From contig RFOO01000001.1 in assembly GCA_009926645.1 (NCBI GenBank), forward strand, positions 1 through 26,967: a stretch of 26,967 bases of DNA, read 5' to 3'. The notes beneath the pieces were generated by a model, which saw nothing but the letters and a program-made list of their open reading frames with translations, had not been told where the DNA came from and did not search any database. This stretch comes from a bacterium. Its GTDB lineage: Bacteria; Verrucomicrobiota; Verrucomicrobiia; Opitutales; UBA953. Position numbers and translations under genes: made by a program. Shown in pieces: positions 10,694-17,429 of the stretch. How positions within the stretch are numbered: the stretch's first letter is position 1; each line of letters begins with the position of its first letter.

Positions 10694-11581
10694 TCACCAA
10701 GCCGACTTTGCCCACTCTAAACCATAGGAGAGGATGACGAGGGCGAGAGGGGCGGTAAGAATCAAACTATCGATGAGATCGAGTGCGCCACCGATACCAG
10801 GAATCGTGGATCCCGAATCTTTAACTCCTGCTTGGCGTTTAAAAACAGATTCAATCAAGTCCGAGGGCACACTAGCGATAGCCAAAGGCAGAGCGAGAAT
10901 CGCGGCCTTGGTAGGCAACATAAACGGTATGTGAAAAACGTTTAAGCAAACCCAGGCATAGAGGGCAGAAGCGAGGGCTGAGAAAAATAAACCACCCACC
11001 ACACCTTCCCAGCTCTTGGCCGGACTAATCGTCGGAGCAATTTTGTGTTTTCCGAAGGGTACGCCAACAAGCAGTCCGCCGACATCGGTAAACTTAGTCG
11101 CCACCGCTACCCAAATGACGTAAAACAAACCAACCGATGAATGGTTCAGTAGTACTCCATTTTCCATTCGTGCGATAGCCACGAGTGGTGAGAGCATAAA
11201 GGGGACATAGAGGAAACCGTAGAAATTGGGTAAATGACGAACAAGGGGAGGTGTCTGCTGAGGGTTCCTGAGTAAACTAAGAAGATGTAGAGCAAAAAGA
11301 AAAGTAAGAGCAGTGATAAGGGGGTTCGCTCTTAGGCGCTCGCTGGCGAAGAAAAAAAGTACGAAAAGAAAAACGAAACCAGCAATGATACCCGTGAAAT
11401 TGGTTCGGCGATTACGATTAATTTTATTACAAATTTGATAAAACTCGTACTGAGCGGCCCCGACTAAAAGGGCAAGAACGCCGAAAGCGGCTTGCTCGGT
11501 GAGGGAGTAACAGGAGCCGAGATAAATCACGAGACCGACGATAACCCAGAGGCCAATCGTGCTGAGCGTACGGTGTATCAT
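10694..11581 (-). CDS. cdsA: Phosphatidate cytidylyltransferase
   Basis: Multi-TM protein with KFTDVGG, GKHKIAPTISPAKSWEG and SDLIESVFKRQAGVKDSGSTIPGIGGALDLIDSL. Adjacent to uppS. Confidence 0.95.
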   Translation of the reverse strand: MIHRTLSTIGLWVIVGLVIYLGSCYSLTEQAAFGVLALLVGAAQYEFYQICNKINRNRRTNFTGIIAGFVFLFVLFFFASERLRANPLITALTFLFALHLLSLLRNPQQTPPLVRHLPNFYGFLYVPFMLSPLVAIARMENGVLLNHSSVGLFYVIWVAVATKFTDVGGLLVGVPFGKHKIAPTISPAKSWEGVVGGLFFSALASALYAWVCLNVFHIPFMLPTKAAILALPLAIASVPSDLIESVFKRQAGVKDSGSTIPGIGGALDLIDSLILTAPLALVILSYGLEWAKSAW

Positions 11582-12387
11582 GGGGTCTTGGTGTGGTTAA
11601 TTTGCTCGTGAGTCATGCCGAAACGGCGCTCACGTTTTCCAAATTCGGATAAGGCTTTCGTAAACTCTTCTTTTGTAAAATCAGGCCAGTGGACTGGGGT
11701 GAAGACAATCTCCGCATAGGCTGATTGTAGAAGTAAGAAATTGCTCAAGCGATGTTCTCCCGATGTGCGAATAATTAAATCGGGGTCGGGGAGGCCACTG
11801 GTTTGAAGATGATTAGCGATATCGTCCCAGCCGATATTTTCGGGTTTGATTTTACCTGCCAGGGCTTCCGCAGCGAGATTTTTGACGGCGGTGGTGATTT
11901 CTTGGCGTGCACCGTAGTTTAAGGCGACAATGAGTGTGAAAGCTTCATGCTTGGCGCTATCGGTAATAGCCTGCTTCAGGGGGTTCTTCACAAAGTCAGG
12001 CATCGCTTCTAAATCACCAATGACTTTGAGGCGAACTTTGCGTCGATGTAGCCGGGCAAGATTGGCTTTAAGTACCCATTCACCGAGCTTGAAAAGACCA
12101 GTCACTTCTTCAACGGGTCGACGCCAATTTTCAGCTGAAAATGCAAAAAGAGTGAGGGCGCTGACACCTTGATCGATGCAGCAGTCTACGACATCAAAAA
12201 TACGCTCAGCTCCACGACGGTGTCCTTCGAGACGAGGTAAATGACGGGCGGCAGCCCACCGTCCATTTCCATCCATAATAATTCCGATGTGCTTAGGTAT
12301 GTCCGTGCGCAGGCTGGGTGATGGATGAGATTCAGGCACGATAGGTAAGTTTCGAGGCAAAGTGTTGCACGAGTCTTTGGGAGTCAA
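11578..12387 (-). CDS. uppS: Isoprenyl transferase (undecaprenyl diphosphate synthase)
   Basis: HIGIIMDGNGRWA, FAFSAENWRRP, ALNYGARQEI, PDLIIRTSGEHRLSNFLL and RERRFG. TTG start overlaps the exbD stop; the true start could be slightly downstream. Confidence 0.96.
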   Translation of the reverse strand: MTPKDSCNTLPRNLPIVPESHPSPSLRTDIPKHIGIIMDGNGRWAAARHLPRLEGHRRGAERIFDVVDCCIDQGVSALTLFAFSAENWRRPVEEVTGLFKLGEWVLKANLARLHRRKVRLKVIGDLEAMPDFVKNPLKQAITDSAKHEAFTLIVALNYGARQEITTAVKNLAAEALAGKIKPENIGWDDIANHLQTSGLPDPDLIIRTSGEHRLSNFLLLQSAYAEIVFTPVHWPDFTKEEFTKALSEFGKRERRFGMTHEQINHTKTP

Positions 12388-12848
12388 CGCTCGTCAGCAG
12401 CAATCAAAACCCCAGGAAATCCTGCCCGTCGAACGGATTCACAGACGGAGATAAAACTTTGCATGGTTAAAAGGGCATCGGCTTTGATGAGCACCGGACG
12501 AGATAAAAGTGTTTGGTCGGCTGCGAGTCGCTGTAATTCAACTTTGAGTCCGGCATCGTCTACCACCCGTCCATCAATCACATAAACACCTGCCCCACGT
12601 GCGGAAATAAGGGTGACGGTGGTTGATGTTTGTGCAAGGTCGCCAACGTTCGTGACGGGAGTGGTGAGGTGGCTATTGGCGGCAGCACGGACATTGCTAA
12701 ATCCCACATACATTCCTGGGGCATAAACGAAATGCGAGCACAGTACGGCAATCAGTGCAGCACATACTAGGGCTAAAAGAACAGGCCACGTTCCTGAATC
12801 CTTTTGAGCAGGACGTACTTTTTCGAGAATGCCTAAAGGGGTGTGCAT
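12384..12848 (-). CDS. ExbD/TolR-like biopolymer transport protein, atypical (no TM aspartate)
   Basis: One N-terminal TM helix and a periplasmic domain VYVIDG...VLIKADA...VCESVRRAGFPGVLIA, typical of ExbD. Start taken as ATG 12848 (MHTPLG), 7 nt after the exbB stop. Confidence 0.8.
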   Translation of the reverse strand: MHTPLGILEKVRPAQKDSGTWPVLLALVCAALIAVLCSHFVYAPGMYVGFSNVRAAANSHLTTPVTNVGDLAQTSTTVTLISARGAGVYVIDGRVVDDAGLKVELQRLAADQTLLSRPVLIKADALLTMQSFISVCESVRRAGFPGVLIAADER

Positions 12849-12855
12849 ACCGTGA

Positions 12856-13497
12856 TTAAACAGAACGTTCTTTCTCTGTTGGCAGTTCGTGATGGACGAA
12901 GGTGATGATAGAGTGGGCTGCAATTTCCATTTCGGTAACAATCGAACGTACCCGCCCCACAAGAAAGTGATGAGCTAATGTGCAACCCGTTGCGATGACG
13001 AGGGAGAATCCAGCATTGGCTAGCGCTGATAAAATATCGGGAAACAATTTATTCGCAGATGCGTAGACACTGCCATCGTGAAGACCACTGGCCAAGTGGA
13101 AGCCAGAAAAAATGGCCGCGGTAAGTCCGATGAGTGGTGCAACCCTTCCAATCGCGGAAATTGTTCCAAGTCGTCTTTCTAAAACGGGTAATTCCAAGAG
13201 TGCTGCTTGGATAGCAGCTGCCCGCATGGCCTCTTCAGTGCCATCGGCACGGAGTAAAGCCGCCTTCACCACGCGGGGTATGGGACCAGGGGATTCCTCG
13301 CAAGCAGCCAAAGCTTCTAAAGGCCTTTGGGCTTTTAGGTTGTTTCGCACTCCATCGATAAAATCGGATGAAAGTACGAGACCGCGATGAAGGAACATGG
13401 TTCGTTCGACAACAAAGACGAGAGCGAGAAAAGCGAGACCGAGTAAGATCCAGACAAATGGTCCAGCATCAGCGGGGAAAGAAAAAGGTGCATTCAT
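12856..13497 (-). CDS. MotA/TolQ/ExbB-like proton channel family protein, atypical
   Basis: TM1, then a cytoplasmic helical domain (LELPVLERRLGTISAIGRVAPLIGL), TM2 and TM3. Lies directly upstream of the exbD-like gene. Confidence 0.85.
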   Translation of the reverse strand: MNAPFSFPADAGPFVWILLGLAFLALVFVVERTMFLHRGLVLSSDFIDGVRNNLKAQRPLEALAACEESPGPIPRVVKAALLRADGTEEAMRAAAIQAALLELPVLERRLGTISAIGRVAPLIGLTAAIFSGFHLASGLHDGSVYASANKLFPDILSALANAGFSLVIATGCTLAHHFLVGRVRSIVTEMEIAAHSIITFVHHELPTEKERSV

Positions 13498-13503
13498 AAC
13501 CTA

Positions 13504-16248
13504 TTATTTTTTATTGGAGATTTGTGATAGAGTCGCAAGTTTGCTTTCGGCGGCGTTTTGACCAGGAAGTCTAATCTCTCCTTGAGGTAAAAGGCGATTG
13601 AGTTCGGTAATGATTCGGTAAGTAGCGATTGCCTCGAGGGTATCGCCTTCGTCTTCATAAAGTTGACCGAGTAAGAGAATCGAACGCGAAAGCCAAACTC
13701 GACCAGAAGTTCCGTAGGTAAATTCGGAGGAGTTTTTGACTGTTTTTAGGGCCGAGAGTGTATGAAGAAGAACATTACGAGCCTCCAAGCGAGTTGCGTT
13801 GGCGTCGGTGCTCGCCTCTGCTTTGGCACGCTCGAGAAGCGCGAGAGCTAGTTTGTAGCGCACCTCAGCTAAGACGTCGGCGTCTTTGGCCCACGCACCA
13901 GCAACATTTTCATAGGCGGCTACGGCCAAAGAGACGCGCTGTCGGTCCAGCTGTCCGTTGCGCTCACGGCGCAATTCGGAGAGTCCAAAAAGGGAATCAG
14001 CCCGATCAATTTCTGCTTGGGCACGCATGGGATGATCGGGATTTTCTCGAATCAGGCCATTGAGTACCAAAAGTGCGCGATTAAAGTCACCCAGCATGCG
14101 AAGTAGTTCAGCACGTCGAAGTGTGGCGGTGAAGAGAAGGGGGCTTTTGGGGAATGATTCGGAAAATTTTTCAAGAATTTCTACCGCCTCTTTTAATTTC
14201 TTATCACCAACCGTTGGAGCTTGAATCGCAGCTTCCTCAGCAGCCTCGTACAAACCTAATTCAGCGAACTCAGCCATGGTTGCATCCTCACCTTGGAAAT
14301 TTTGCGAGAGCTCTAAGAAACGTTCTTGGGCTTCGGCGTGCCGGCCTAAAGCAGCGAGATACCTACCTTCGACGAGATAGGAGGCGGCAGCGGCAGAGAC
14401 TTTTCCGTACTGCTTTCGTATGTTTTCAAGTTCCACTAAACCCGCAGCGTTTTGAGTGCCGAGGGTGGTTCTTGCTTTCAAGAGGGCAATATGACCACGC
14501 AGAGCTGGTGCGTTTTCTTTCAACTCAGCAGAGGCATTGGCGGGTAACTGATTGAGTTGCTGACTGATACCATCAGCGATTTTGAGGGTATTTTCAGTAT
14601 CGTGTTTAGCCAGAGCAATGAGGGCTCGCTGCCAACTAAAGCGCAGACTGTAGTCCACCGGCAAATCGACGAGTAAAGGGTTTAGGCGTTCGAGAACTTG
14701 TCCTGCTGTATCAGGTTGATTAGCTTTGCGAATGTCTTCCACTAGGCACCACACGGCAATCCAGATTCTTTCGGCGGGAATTTTATTCGATTTCTGACTT
14801 TGTTGAATGATGTCAGCGACCTGCGACCAGGTTTTATTATCGTTCGCTGTTTGTAGAAGGGAAAGGATACGTTGATGAAACGCTGAGATGGCTAAATCGA
14901 CTCCCTCTGTTTCATTTTGAATCGCAGCATAAGCTTTTTCAGCTAAAGCGTAATCACCGGCGAGAAACAAGCAGTCAGCTGACACGGTTCGTAGAATGTC
15001 ACGCGGAATGCCGACCTTACCCTCGGCCAGAGTGTCGAGCAAAGAGGAGGCGAGTCGGAAAGAGCCATCTCCCCAAGCAACCAGGGCTAGGGTGCGTGTT
15101 GCTTCTCGGGCTAGGGGGCTAGCGGGAACGTCCTTGATTAAATCGCTGGCTGCTTGGCGGGCTTTTTCTCGATTGCCAGCAATGAGCATGAGTTGAGCTC
15201 GGGCTAAGTGGATCGCATCGAGAACCGCTGGATCGCGCGGACAGACAAATTGGTTCTGCCCTTCGTTTTGCTGCATTAAAAAATCATAAATTTCGTTAGC
15301 AACCGATTGGGTCTCGCTCGGCTTAGCTTCCGCGGCTGCTGCGACTAATGCACGTAATGCGGTGAGGCGAAGAGAGGTTGCCGCTGGGTTTTTGGCGACA
15401 TGCATTAAAGCTTTTCGTCCATCTGCAGTTTCAATTCCAAGAATTAAACCAGCGAGTAAGTCTGCTTCAGCTTGTTCGGTGGGCGAGCGTTGTGCCGACG
15501 ACAAGAGGATGGAGGCAGCTTCTGATTTAAGATTCTGTCGGGCCAAGGCTAATGCCAAACTGCGCTGGTAGGCAAAAGCGTTAGGAGTGCCGACACTGAG
15601 TTTTACTTTTTCTCTTAAATGGGCGATAACAGTGTCATCAATTTTCCCTGCCATGATCAGGGAACGATAATTCAGAATTTCGATGCGTTGCTTCTGGATT
15701 TCAGAAACAACGGATTGATTAGCATCGAGAATAGATTGATTGAGTTTAAGGGTGTCTCCTTGATGGCTGGCAATGAATCCGCGTAAGGCATGAAGCCAGG
15801 CAACATCTTGGGGAACTAGTTGGTTGGGGTTAATTTTTTCTGTCCATTGAATGGCGGCCGTAAAGTTATCATCCAGCACTGCCAGCATACCTTCGCGCAA
15901 AGCTTTGGCGGGAGAATAGGGAATTGTATTAAGTATTTCTCGTGCTTCCTTGATTTTAGAGCGTTCAATGTAGGCTGTGCTTAGACCAAGAGACGCTGTC
16001 TCGCGATCTTGGGCGCTGAGTTGGGGAAGGCTTAAGACTTTGGTGTATAAATCCGCAGCCGTCGCCGTTAAGCCAATCGTGAGAGCATCATCGGCTAATT
16101 CCATCTGGCTGCGTTGCCAGGCTGGGGTCGAGGCTGTCGCAGACGGTGTCTGGCCAATGACGGGGACGGGCACATCTTGTGCGTAAGCCAAGCCTCCTGC
16201 AGTAAGGCAGAAGCAAAGACTCAAAATGATCCCGAATCGTCTCATCAT
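13504..16248 (-). CDS. Large exported tetratricopeptide-repeat protein (~914 aa)
   Basis: Signal peptide MMRRFGIILSLCFCLTAGGLAYA-Q. Repeated Ala/Leu-rich helical pairs, e.g. LRRAELLRMLGDFNRALLVLNGLIRENPDHP and ADCLFLAGDYALAEKAY. Alternative GTG start at 16296 abuts the lysC stop. Confidence 0.8.
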   Translation of the reverse strand: MMRRFGIILSLCFCLTAGGLAYAQDVPVPVIGQTPSATASTPAWQRSQMELADDALTIGLTATAADLYTKVLSLPQLSAQDRETASLGLSTAYIERSKIKEAREILNTIPYSPAKALREGMLAVLDDNFTAAIQWTEKINPNQLVPQDVAWLHALRGFIASHQGDTLKLNQSILDANQSVVSEIQKQRIEILNYRSLIMAGKIDDTVIAHLREKVKLSVGTPNAFAYQRSLALALARQNLKSEAASILLSSAQRSPTEQAEADLLAGLILGIETADGRKALMHVAKNPAATSLRLTALRALVAAAAEAKPSETQSVANEIYDFLMQQNEGQNQFVCPRDPAVLDAIHLARAQLMLIAGNREKARQAASDLIKDVPASPLAREATRTLALVAWGDGSFRLASSLLDTLAEGKVGIPRDILRTVSADCLFLAGDYALAEKAYAAIQNETEGVDLAISAFHQRILSLLQTANDNKTWSQVADIIQQSQKSNKIPAERIWIAVWCLVEDIRKANQPDTAGQVLERLNPLLVDLPVDYSLRFSWQRALIALAKHDTENTLKIADGISQQLNQLPANASAELKENAPALRGHIALLKARTTLGTQNAAGLVELENIRKQYGKVSAAAASYLVEGRYLAALGRHAEAQERFLELSQNFQGEDATMAEFAELGLYEAAEEAAIQAPTVGDKKLKEAVEILEKFSESFPKSPLLFTATLRRAELLRMLGDFNRALLVLNGLIRENPDHPMRAQAEIDRADSLFGLSELRRERNGQLDRQRVSLAVAAYENVAGAWAKDADVLAEVRYKLALALLERAKAEASTDANATRLEARNVLLHTLSALKTVKNSSEFTYGTSGRVWLSRSILLLGQLYEDEGDTLEAIATYRIITELNRLLPQGEIRLPGQNAAESKLATLSQISNKK

Positions 16249-16296: not shown

Positions 16297-16938
16297 TTAA
16301 GCCTTATCTAGGCCAAAGGCGGTATGAACGGCACGAACGGCCGCATCGGCTTTAGCGGGGTCAATCGCCACGGAAATCTTGATTTCGGAAGTGGTGATTA
16401 ACTCGCTATTGATGCCAACTGATGCGAGAGCCTTAAAGAGTGTTCCCGCAACGCCAGGGTGGGAAATCATGCCCACGCCAACGATGGAGAGTTTAGAGAT
16501 TTCGCCAGCTGAGCGTACAGAACCCGAGCCGAGTTTTTTAAGCGTCTGCCCAACAATTTTTTCAACGCGGGTAAACTGATCGGTTGTTACCGAGAAAGTG
16601 AGGTTTGATTTTCCGTTATTACCCAGATTTTTAATGATCATATCCACGCTGAGACCTGCTTCGCCAAGGTCGTCAAAGAGGGCAGCGATTGCTTGAGGCG
16701 TGTCGGGTAAATCAGTCACCGTGACGCGTGTTTGTAATCGGTCGAGGGCTACGCCTGCAATCGCGGCGTCTTCGAGGGTTTTGTCGATGGCTTTCACAAT
16801 AGTACCGGGTTGGTCGTTAAAAGAGGAGCGAACTTCGAAGGGAACGTTGTATTTTTGTGCAAATTCTACGGAACGAGATTGCATGACTTTGGAGCCACTC
16901 GAGGCTAGCTCAAGCATCTCTTCATAAGAAATTTCTTG
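16297..16938 (-). pseudogene. lysC: Aspartate kinase, C-terminal part (end of the kinase domain plus two ACT domains) of a split lysC
   Basis: Frame reads [27 protein letters not shown]...FEVRSSF...PGT, then KLSIVGVGM.SHPGVA..LF and TTSEIKISV. Confidence 0.9.
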
Positions 16939-17429
16939 ATTGATGCGGCGACGGCGATGGCAGTGAGGTCTGATCCACCACGACCTAGGGTTGTTACTTC
17001 GCCTTGATCGGTTACCCCTTGAAAACCAGCCACAACAACGACTTTACCTTCATCGAGGCGTTCTAATAAATCTCCTCCCGTGATGCGGGTGATGCGAGCC
17101 CGAGTGTGGACATCGTCGGTAAAAATACCTGCTTGGGCTCCCGTTCGGGAAACAGCGGGGACGCCAATAGCGTGTAATGCGATTACTGTTAAAGCGATGG
17201 TCTCTTGCTCACCTACGGCAAGTAGGACGTCCATTTCCCGTTCATCGGCAAGGGGCATCAGCGCTTTGGCTCGGCCGATGAGTTCATTGGTCACGCCACT
17301 GCGGGCCGAAACAACAACGACCAGACGGTGACCCTTGGACCACTGCTCTTTGATTTTTGCAGCGACGTTTTGAATGCGGTCAACATTTCCAACCGATGTA
17401 CCGCCGTATTTTTGGACAATGAGTGCCAT
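16905..17429 (-). pseudogene. lysC: Aspartate kinase, N-terminal part of a split lysC (frameshifted after ...AVAASIK)
   Basis: [31 protein letters not shown] and [17 protein letters not shown]. It then runs out of frame to a TAG at 16905, and the IYTDVDGVYTADP segment is absent. Confidence 0.9.

Follow-up and report, generated by a model that had tools for sequence, protein, structure and literature searches.

The Thr ring, the proton-transfer Asp and the prolines of the transmembrane (TM) helices are essential in the stator and motor complexes MotAB, TolQR and ExbBD (PMC10666116). Replacement of this Asp by Asn, as in Campylobacter jejuni MotB D22N, has been described as a mimic of protonation (PMC9389320), and Asn at this site cannot cycle (PMC9389320). 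In the Planctomycetota-Verrucomicrobiota-Chlamydiota (PVC) superphylum, a cluster has been reported that consists of a gene encoding a tetratricopeptide repeat (TPR) protein, one tolQ-like gene, two tolR-like genes and a vWA transducer, and that was proposed to be driven by the proton motive force (PMF); a transpore-helix Asp together with a Thr ring is a feature of the second vWA family described in the same work (PMC12204202). We found by keyword search no description in the literature of natural TolR/ExbD families that lack the Asp. Here we analyze a pair of TolQ/ExbB-like and TolR/ExbD-like genes located in contig RFOO01000001.1 of assembly GCA_009926645.1, positions 1 to 26,967, and refer to this whole stretch of 26,967 nucleotides as the window. 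The source assembly is a 1.46-Mb, 93%-complete genome of the order Opitutales (Verrucomicrobiota), and the contigs that are nearly identical to the window belong to freshwater 'Opitutae' metagenome-assembled genomes (MAGs).

The two genes and the positions that matter for proton conduction, whose codons were checked in the sequence, are the following:
12856..13497, minus strand: TolQ/ExbB-like gene, 213 aa, three TM helices, PF01618 match
12384..12848, minus strand: TolR/ExbD-like gene, 154 aa, one TM helix (residues 21-38) followed by a periplasmic domain
13114..13116, minus strand: Ala128, codon GCC, TM2 Thr position (E. coli ExbB T148 in the numbering of the first-pass annotation)
13027..13029, minus strand: Ser157, codon TCA, TM3 Glu position
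13012..13014, minus strand: Ala162, codon GCT, TM3 Thr position (E. coli ExbB T181 in the same numbering)
12985..12987, minus strand: Gly171, codon GGT, TM3 Pro position; the next residue, Cys172, is invariant in the clade
12774..12776, minus strand: Leu25, codon TTA, the essential Asp position of ExbD/TolR/MotB
12762..12764, minus strand: Cys29, codon TGT, one helical turn past Leu25 and clade-specific

The first-pass annotation of this locus had claimed that the Asp and both Thr are missing from the pair, and the TolQ profile alignment, MAFFT and hhalign bear this out, placing Leu25, Ala128 and Ala162 at the three positions. We favor, with moderate confidence, the reading that the pair forms a TolQR-type complex that no longer conducts protons and has been retained as a scaffold or anchor. 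By homology, the two proteins would form an inner-membrane complex in which five TolQ-like subunits surround a dimer of the TolR-like TM helices, i.e., a 5:2 assembly. In the freshwater Opitutales, including the source of the window, Leu at the TolR Asp position and Ala at both TolQ Thr positions would close the canonical proton pathway, as Leu at the central site cannot bind an ion; in many other lineages the TolR Asp was exchanged for Asn, a mimic of the protonated state, or for Ser. Since selection still holds these proteins, including their TM helices and a family-specific cytoplasmic motif, the complex is probably kept for a role without proton-driven cycling, which would most likely be to anchor or scaffold the TPR protein and the TolR-like periplasmic domain at the membrane.

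The assignment of the TolQ-like protein is straightforward, as it matches PF01618 with 42.3 bits, above the gathering cut-off of 22.9. Its AlphaFold2 model (predicted local distance difference test score 86) has the three-TM TolQ/ExbB fold with a long cytoplasmic helical domain; the top match in the PDB is E. coli TolQ (9ddm_E, TM-score 0.76), and ExbB structures are matched with TM-scores of 0.62-0.69. Profile alignment to the solved TolQ chains puts the window's GLTAA opposite GLFGT, so that the TM2 Thr corresponds to Ala128, and DILSALANAG..ATG opposite GIAEALIATA..AIP, so that the Glu, Thr and Pro of TM3 correspond to Ser157, Ala162 and Gly171, respectively. The protein thus has neither the conserved Thr of the PF01618 family in TM2 (G-L-x-G-T) nor the Thr and Pro in TM3. 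It was also noted earlier that the pair had lost the TM3 Glu and Pro. Both replacements, Ser157 and Gly171, are present, but across nearly all of the orthologous family the Glu has given way to another residue, mostly Gln, including in the members that keep the Asp. Against the TolQ equivalog model TIGR02796, the protein scores 29.7 bits (cut-off 221).

The TolR-like protein is more divergent. It matches PF02472 weakly and only in its periplasmic part (21.9 bits, below the cut-off of 25.4), and it scores 12.8 bits against the TolR equivalog model TIGR02801 (cut-off 127). However, its orthologs at the same locus reach 86.4 bits against PF02472 and align with it over the full length, and its homology to this family therefore follows by transitivity. 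Its periplasmic domain superimposes on ExbD/TolR structures; for the best three ExbD chains, the target-normalized TM-scores are 0.75-0.81 and the root-mean-square deviations 2.1-2.9 Å. Two MAFFT alignments in which the canonical paralogs were included and the hhalign comparison agree in placing Leu25 at the aspartate of the P-x-x-D motif. The predicted TM helix (residues 21-38) contains no acidic residue, with Asp17 preceding it, and, according to the MAFFT alignment, Cys29 is missing from the TolR-like proteins of other clades. A protonatable carboxylate facing the Thr ring, a trait of ion-driven 5:2 rotary motors, is not present in the pair by alignment, and, apart from the clade-specific Cys, no conserved ionizable residue that might replace it was found in either protein. 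The gene starts at the ATG at 12848, 7 nt past the stop of the TolQ-like gene; the TTG at 12962 is not its start.

This combination of residues is an old one and has been stable across a large clade. Both reading frames are intact across 80 species-level freshwater Opitutales genomes (61-100% identity), 72 of which combine Ala/Ala in the TolQ-like protein with Leu, and Cys at +4, in the TolR-like protein. The TM2 Thr column is Ala in 92% and the TM3 Thr column in 96% of these genomes. A comparison with orthologs had been proposed as a check on the first observation; the TolR-like gene was found in 77 of the 80 genomes, and its Asp column is non-acidic in all 77 and Leu in 76. Likewise, metagenomic clusters of TolR-like homologs at 48-100% identity have Leu at this column in 89 of 89 scorable cases (2 of the 91 rows are gapped), and Cys29 is present in 88 of these 89 clusters and in 94% of the clade genomes. 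The TolQ-like clusters at 60-69% identity already have Ala or Gly at the TM3 position, while TM2 still has Ser or Thr in about two thirds of them, and above 70% identity the TM2 position is Ala or Gly. As TM3 had changed while TM2 was still Ser/Thr, the two Thr were lost in succession. The ionizable or polar residues that might stand in for the lost ones fare poorly in this clade: the Asp of FPDI (Asp154), which had been suggested as a substitute, is conserved in only 31% of the genomes; the Arg of IGRVAP (Arg118), suggested likewise, is 93% conserved, yet it lies at the cytoplasmic start of TM2, at the membrane boundary; and Thr126, which is Ala in 90% of the clade, is not a credible substitute either. 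Several public MAG records (L130, L143, L146, L167, L176 and L187) carry the Opitutales-type gene at 72-87% identity under titles as varied as Akkermansia muciniphila, Klebsiella sp., Polynucleobacter meluiroseus and Prosthecobacter debontii; the taxonomy of these records is most likely mislabelled.

Across the wider family, loss of the Asp is recurrent. Over 54 orthologous loci, the Asp column is D in 18, N in 32, S in 2 and L in 2, the last being the window's genus, and at least 11 changes at this column are required on the TolQ-like tree. Both the Asp and the Asn states occur inside one taxonomic family (L064 and L067, respectively). Among the best 146 single-domain representative TolR-like clusters, 91 have Asp, 47 Asn and 8 another residue, so that 55 of the 146 lack the Asp. 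Loss of the Thr is rarer than that of the Asp across the orthologous loci. The TM2 Thr is kept throughout the 54 loci except in the window's genus (Ala) and in one locus with Ser, while the TM3 Thr is Ala in eight loci (seven events), all with a non-Asp partner (8/36 vs 0/18 Asp-type loci). Accordingly, the losses were not concerted, as had been thought from the window, but stepwise, with the Asp replaced at least 11 times phylum-wide and the Thr lost later and in fewer lineages. Since the Asp and both Thr are found in members from other lineages, the ancestral module probably had them as well. The most parsimonious history is one in which a canonical TolQR-like ancestor, which was probably PMF-coupled, lost the Asp repeatedly, and the Thr were lost afterwards in some lineages, where they were no longer needed once the Asp had gone.

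The pair is not decaying, and both genes are under purifying selection. In comparisons with relatives of 95-99% protein identity (dS 0.10-0.25), the TolQ-like gene has a ratio of nonsynonymous to synonymous substitution rates (dN/dS) of 0.06, the TolR-like gene one of 0.12-0.16 and the adjacent TPR gene one of 0.05, with 0-0.09 for the comparison genes uppS, cdsA, miaA and ahpC; against relatives at 84-87% identity, the value for the TolR-like gene is 0.05-0.06. The first-pass annotation had argued from the full length and tight linkage of the two reading frames that they do not look decayed, and the 7-nt gap between them and these ratios (0.06 and 0.05-0.16 for the TolQ-like and TolR-like genes, respectively) agree with this view. 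It had also suggested a search for canonical exbBD/tolQR paralogs, and we found four other ExbB/ExbD pairs in the source genome, on contigs C285, C205, C323 and C330. All four are canonical throughout, with GLxGT in TM2, the TM3 Thr and the ExbD Asp. As these four pairs keep the residues, their loss is specific to the pair in the window, and the canonical pairs can cover the energized functions in this genome. None of the canonical paralogs reaches the cut-off of the NCBIfam equivalog models, by which a true TolQ is therefore not distinguishable among them. The cluster on C323 consists of one ExbB gene followed by two ExbD genes, the second of which runs off the end of C323 and continues on C273.

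The pair belongs to a module that is found nearly throughout the phylum, as a profile of the TolQ-like protein matched strongly and over the full length in 396 of the 401 Verrucomicrobiota genomes searched, with best E-values mostly below 1e-30. The conserved gene order is a TPR gene, the TolQ-like gene, the TolR-like gene and a gene for a single-pass protein of 230-300 aa (roughly 250) with a TonB_C-like end. In most orthologous loci, the TPR gene, of roughly 650-985 aa (mostly about 845), is directly upstream of the TolQ-like gene, and the synteny of TPR, TolQ-like and TolR-like genes persists down to 68% identity of the TolR-like protein. Two further features of the window belong to this description:
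13504..16245, minus strand: giant TPR protein gene, 913 aa from the ATG used by relatives; begins the module; the product carries an N-terminal signal peptide
13279..13317, minus strand: cytoplasmic signature E-A-L-x-x-C-E-x-x-P-G-P of the TolQ-like protein, residues 61-73
The TPR gene is separated from the TolQ-like gene by 6 nt, and its product matches several TPR Pfam families and includes a YbgF/CpoB-like stretch (45 bits). The signature has the form E-A-x-x-x-C-E/D-x-x-P-G-P across the family and is accompanied by a second one, E-L/I-P-x-L-E-R/K; the canonical paralogs have neither. The motif made up of the invariant Cys-Glu and Pro-Gly-Pro is the best-conserved part of the family phylum-wide.

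The third gene follows the pair in most relatives, and its product contains, in many lineages, the TM His that is typical of TonB/TolA. No Pfam family matches this protein, whose likeness to TonB_C consists only of an S-S-G..D motif and one atlas lead. The gene is not linked to the pair in the window's genus; it encodes a protein of 255 aa with a single TM helix that has no His, and it lies on contig C17 (3741-4448; L112 1498-2265, minus strand), flanked by tuf and a gene for an HtrA-like protease. In L013, another member of the order, the entire module adjoins tuf. Given this shared tuf neighborhood, the TPR, TolQ-like and TolR-like genes seem to have been relocated in the window's genus, with the third gene left behind. 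We considered that the third gene had been co-lost in the window's family and rejected this, as an improved profile found the gene on C17 and in a sister species. Another idea, that the TM His of the third protein tracks the TolR-like Asp, gave no clean correlation: the His is present in 8 of the 14 Asp-type loci that have the third gene, six non-Asp loci keep it, and, with the exception of L012, no Asn-type locus of the window's order has it. The Thr of the TolQ-like protein are retained in the sister genus, where the TolR-like gene, of the Asn or Ser type, is unlinked from the TolQ-like gene and is followed by a gene for an Rce1-like CPBP intramembrane protease (PF02517; L104 1441-2632 and L105 826-2022). 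A Verrucomicrobiota genome of only 0.9 Mb in a single contig (G090) keeps the pair with Ser at the Asp column and without an adjacent TPR gene (L096 3730-4754), and also carries one canonical TolQ-like pair. Its retention in so small a genome hints that the module is important for the cell.

Of the three readings offered at the outset, i.e., a de-energized scaffold, a partner of a canonical paralog, and a channel with different chemistry, the first fits the data best and the other two less well. An ion-driven motor with different chemistry, which would use Cys29, Cys172, a water wire or, at the cytoplasmic end of TM3, the pair His176/His177, is in our view unlikely. In favor of such a motor, the clade shows strong conservation of TM2, TM3 and the TolR-like helix, new invariant Cys residues arose together with the loss of the Asp and Thr, and His177 is invariant both among the relatives of the window and in the clade. 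On the other hand, no TM core contains an acidic residue, and the central site is occupied by the hydrophobic Leu; judging from the direction of the helices, Cys29 is to the periplasmic side of this site and Cys172 about 10 residues to the cytoplasmic side, so that the two should be unable to pair; and Asp154, Asn161, Thr126 and His134 are not conserved in the clade. Moreover, we know of no 5:2 motor without a carboxylate. Equally, one may ask whether the function was ever related to force transduction across the envelope, and whether the complex instead serves in signaling or assembly, with a role for which the proton path was never of great importance, even in the Asp-bearing members. That the cytoplasmic C-E-x-x-P-G-P motif is the best-conserved part of the family while being missing from the canonical paralogs, that this motif and the TPR partner may point to such a role, that Asp and Asn alternate inside single taxonomic families (L064 vs L067), and that the TM3 Glu is replaced in nearly the whole family would all fit it; however, the TonB_C-like third gene, with its TM His in many lineages, points to an ancestral system for force transduction, and we regard this explanation as distinctly unlikely. 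Mixed complexes, in which a canonical Asp-bearing ExbD sits inside the TolQ-like pentamer, or the Leu-type TolR-like protein is paired with a canonical ExbD, draw on the presence of four canonical pairs in the genome, one with two ExbD genes, on the unlinked TolR-like gene of the sister genus, and on the heterologous TolR pairs described in other PVC clusters (PMC12204202). Yet a canonical Asp needs a Thr ring, and this is missing from the pentamer; only 7 nt separate the two genes; in all clade genomes where it was found, the gene for the Leu-type partner is linked to that for the Thr-less pentamer; and the TPR, TolQ-like and TolR-like synteny is held down to 68% TolR-like identity. We therefore give little credence to the idea that the proteins act in mixed complexes only. 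Finally, it is very improbable that the losses reflect gene decay, relaxed selection or an alignment artifact, an explanation that was tested and is not supported. Although the TolR-like gene evolves faster than its neighbors (dN/dS up to 0.16) and its product scores below the Pfam cut-off, dN/dS is far below 1, the frames are intact in 80 species, three alignment methods agree, and there is no Asp or Glu anywhere in the TolR-like TM helix.

Several observations weigh against the preferred reading of a non-conducting scaffold or anchor. The TM helices are highly conserved in the clade (Cys172, Ala158 and Gly132 100% each, Cys29 94%), and such conservation is perhaps unneeded for a passive scaffold and could point to different pore chemistry; it is the chief unexplained point against a purely passive role. 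Furthermore, the Thr ring is retained in nearly all Asn-type lineages, so that some interaction between the Asn and the Thr still matters there. Although the counts for the loss of the Asp and that of the TM3 Thr run in the expected direction, their association is not significant after phylogenetic correction, with too few pairs for the independent-pairs test, which is underpowered. In addition, one freshwater metatranscriptome contained only ahpC and two short TPR fragments and no reads on the pair, and is uninformative.

The Asp and the Thr ring are regarded as the essential core that defines every 5:2 motor (PMC10666116, PMC9389320), and here a natural, strongly conserved family departs from this rule, with the entire proton path turned hydrophobic in one large freshwater radiation. 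The family also provides a natural experiment on roles of 5:2 complexes other than the conversion of PMF into rotation, with Asp-, Asn-, Ser- and Leu-type orthologs that can be compared directly. It is possible, though we hold it rather doubtful, that the Verrucomicrobiota module is a distinct class of 5:2 complexes whose core job does not involve ion flow and whose Asp-, Asn- and fully hydrophobic versions are equivalent. If so, the 5:2 architecture would serve a purpose that does not depend on the PMF, for instance as a freely turning swivel or a static tether across the envelope, the 'essential' Asp would be dispensable in nature, and the Leu/Ala/Ala clade of the window would be a clean natural end point. 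This uncharacterized module is probably important for the cell envelope, and the Pfam-based labels 'proton channel' and 'biopolymer transport protein ExbB/ExbD' are misleading for the pair.

In the window, the TPR, TolQ/ExbB-like and TolR/ExbD-like genes open a co-oriented run on the minus strand that continues with uppS, cdsA, miaA and a peroxiredoxin gene. The open reading frame of uppS (11578-12387, minus strand) starts at a TTG and overlaps the TolR-like gene by 4 nt, which is probably an over-extension; in the nearly identical contigs, the called protein has 253 aa, matching a start at a GTG near 12339, 44 nt past the TolR-like stop. The aspartokinase gene lysC (16297-17429, minus strand) is present in the window as two overlapping reading frames of 206 and 174 aa, and is intact as one gene of 405 aa in close relatives (L083, L086-L089 and a genome of the same genus in L098); the split is either a true frameshift or deletion in the MAG, or an assembly error.

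Among the known systems, E. coli TolQ-TolR (PDB 8ODT, 9DDM) is the best match in sequence and fold (profile E-value 2.6e-10 to 3.6e-9, TM-score 0.76), and shares with the pair the architecture of a three-TM pentamer subunit and a single-pass partner with an ExbD/TolR periplasmic domain; in addition, the TPR protein of the operon in the window recalls CpoB/YbgF of Tol-Pal. However, the Asp of TolR, the two Thr of TolQ, and the Glu and Pro of TM3 are missing from the pair; neither tolA, tolB nor pal adjoins it, a TolB-like gene being found on contig C315 without Tol neighbors; and the TPR partner is about 900 aa long, compared with 119 positions in the YbgF model. ExbB-ExbD of the Ton system (PDB 5SV0, 6TYI) belongs to the same superfamily and shares its architecture, and relatives encode a TonB_C-like single-pass protein directly downstream, but ExbB-ExbD is more distant than TolQ (fold E-values around 1e-3), the scores of the pair are far below the equivalog cut-offs for both systems, the pair lacks the proton-path residues, the third gene is unlinked in the source genome and its TM helix lacks the His, and there is no TonB-dependent receptor nearby. 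GldLM/PorLM, which serve gliding and type IX secretion, are 5:2-type complexes in which the ion-coupling residues differ from the MotB Asp, with GldL keeping a conserved TM Glu, i.e., a protonatable carboxylate; we saw no sequence relationship between them and the pair. Many natural members of the family resemble C. jejuni MotB D22N in carrying Asn at the same position. Nevertheless, the laboratory Asp-to-Asn stator mutants are non-functional, whereas the Asn, Ser and Leu of this family are natural and have long been kept, and in the clade of the window the Thr ring is gone as well. The PVC vWA cluster (PMC12204202) comes from the same superphylum and likewise has a TPR gene upstream of a tolQR-like motor with a novel periplasmic partner downstream, but it includes two heterologous tolR genes and a vWA protein, whereas the module described here comprises a single tolR-like gene along with a TonB_C-like protein, and its Asp has been lost repeatedly.

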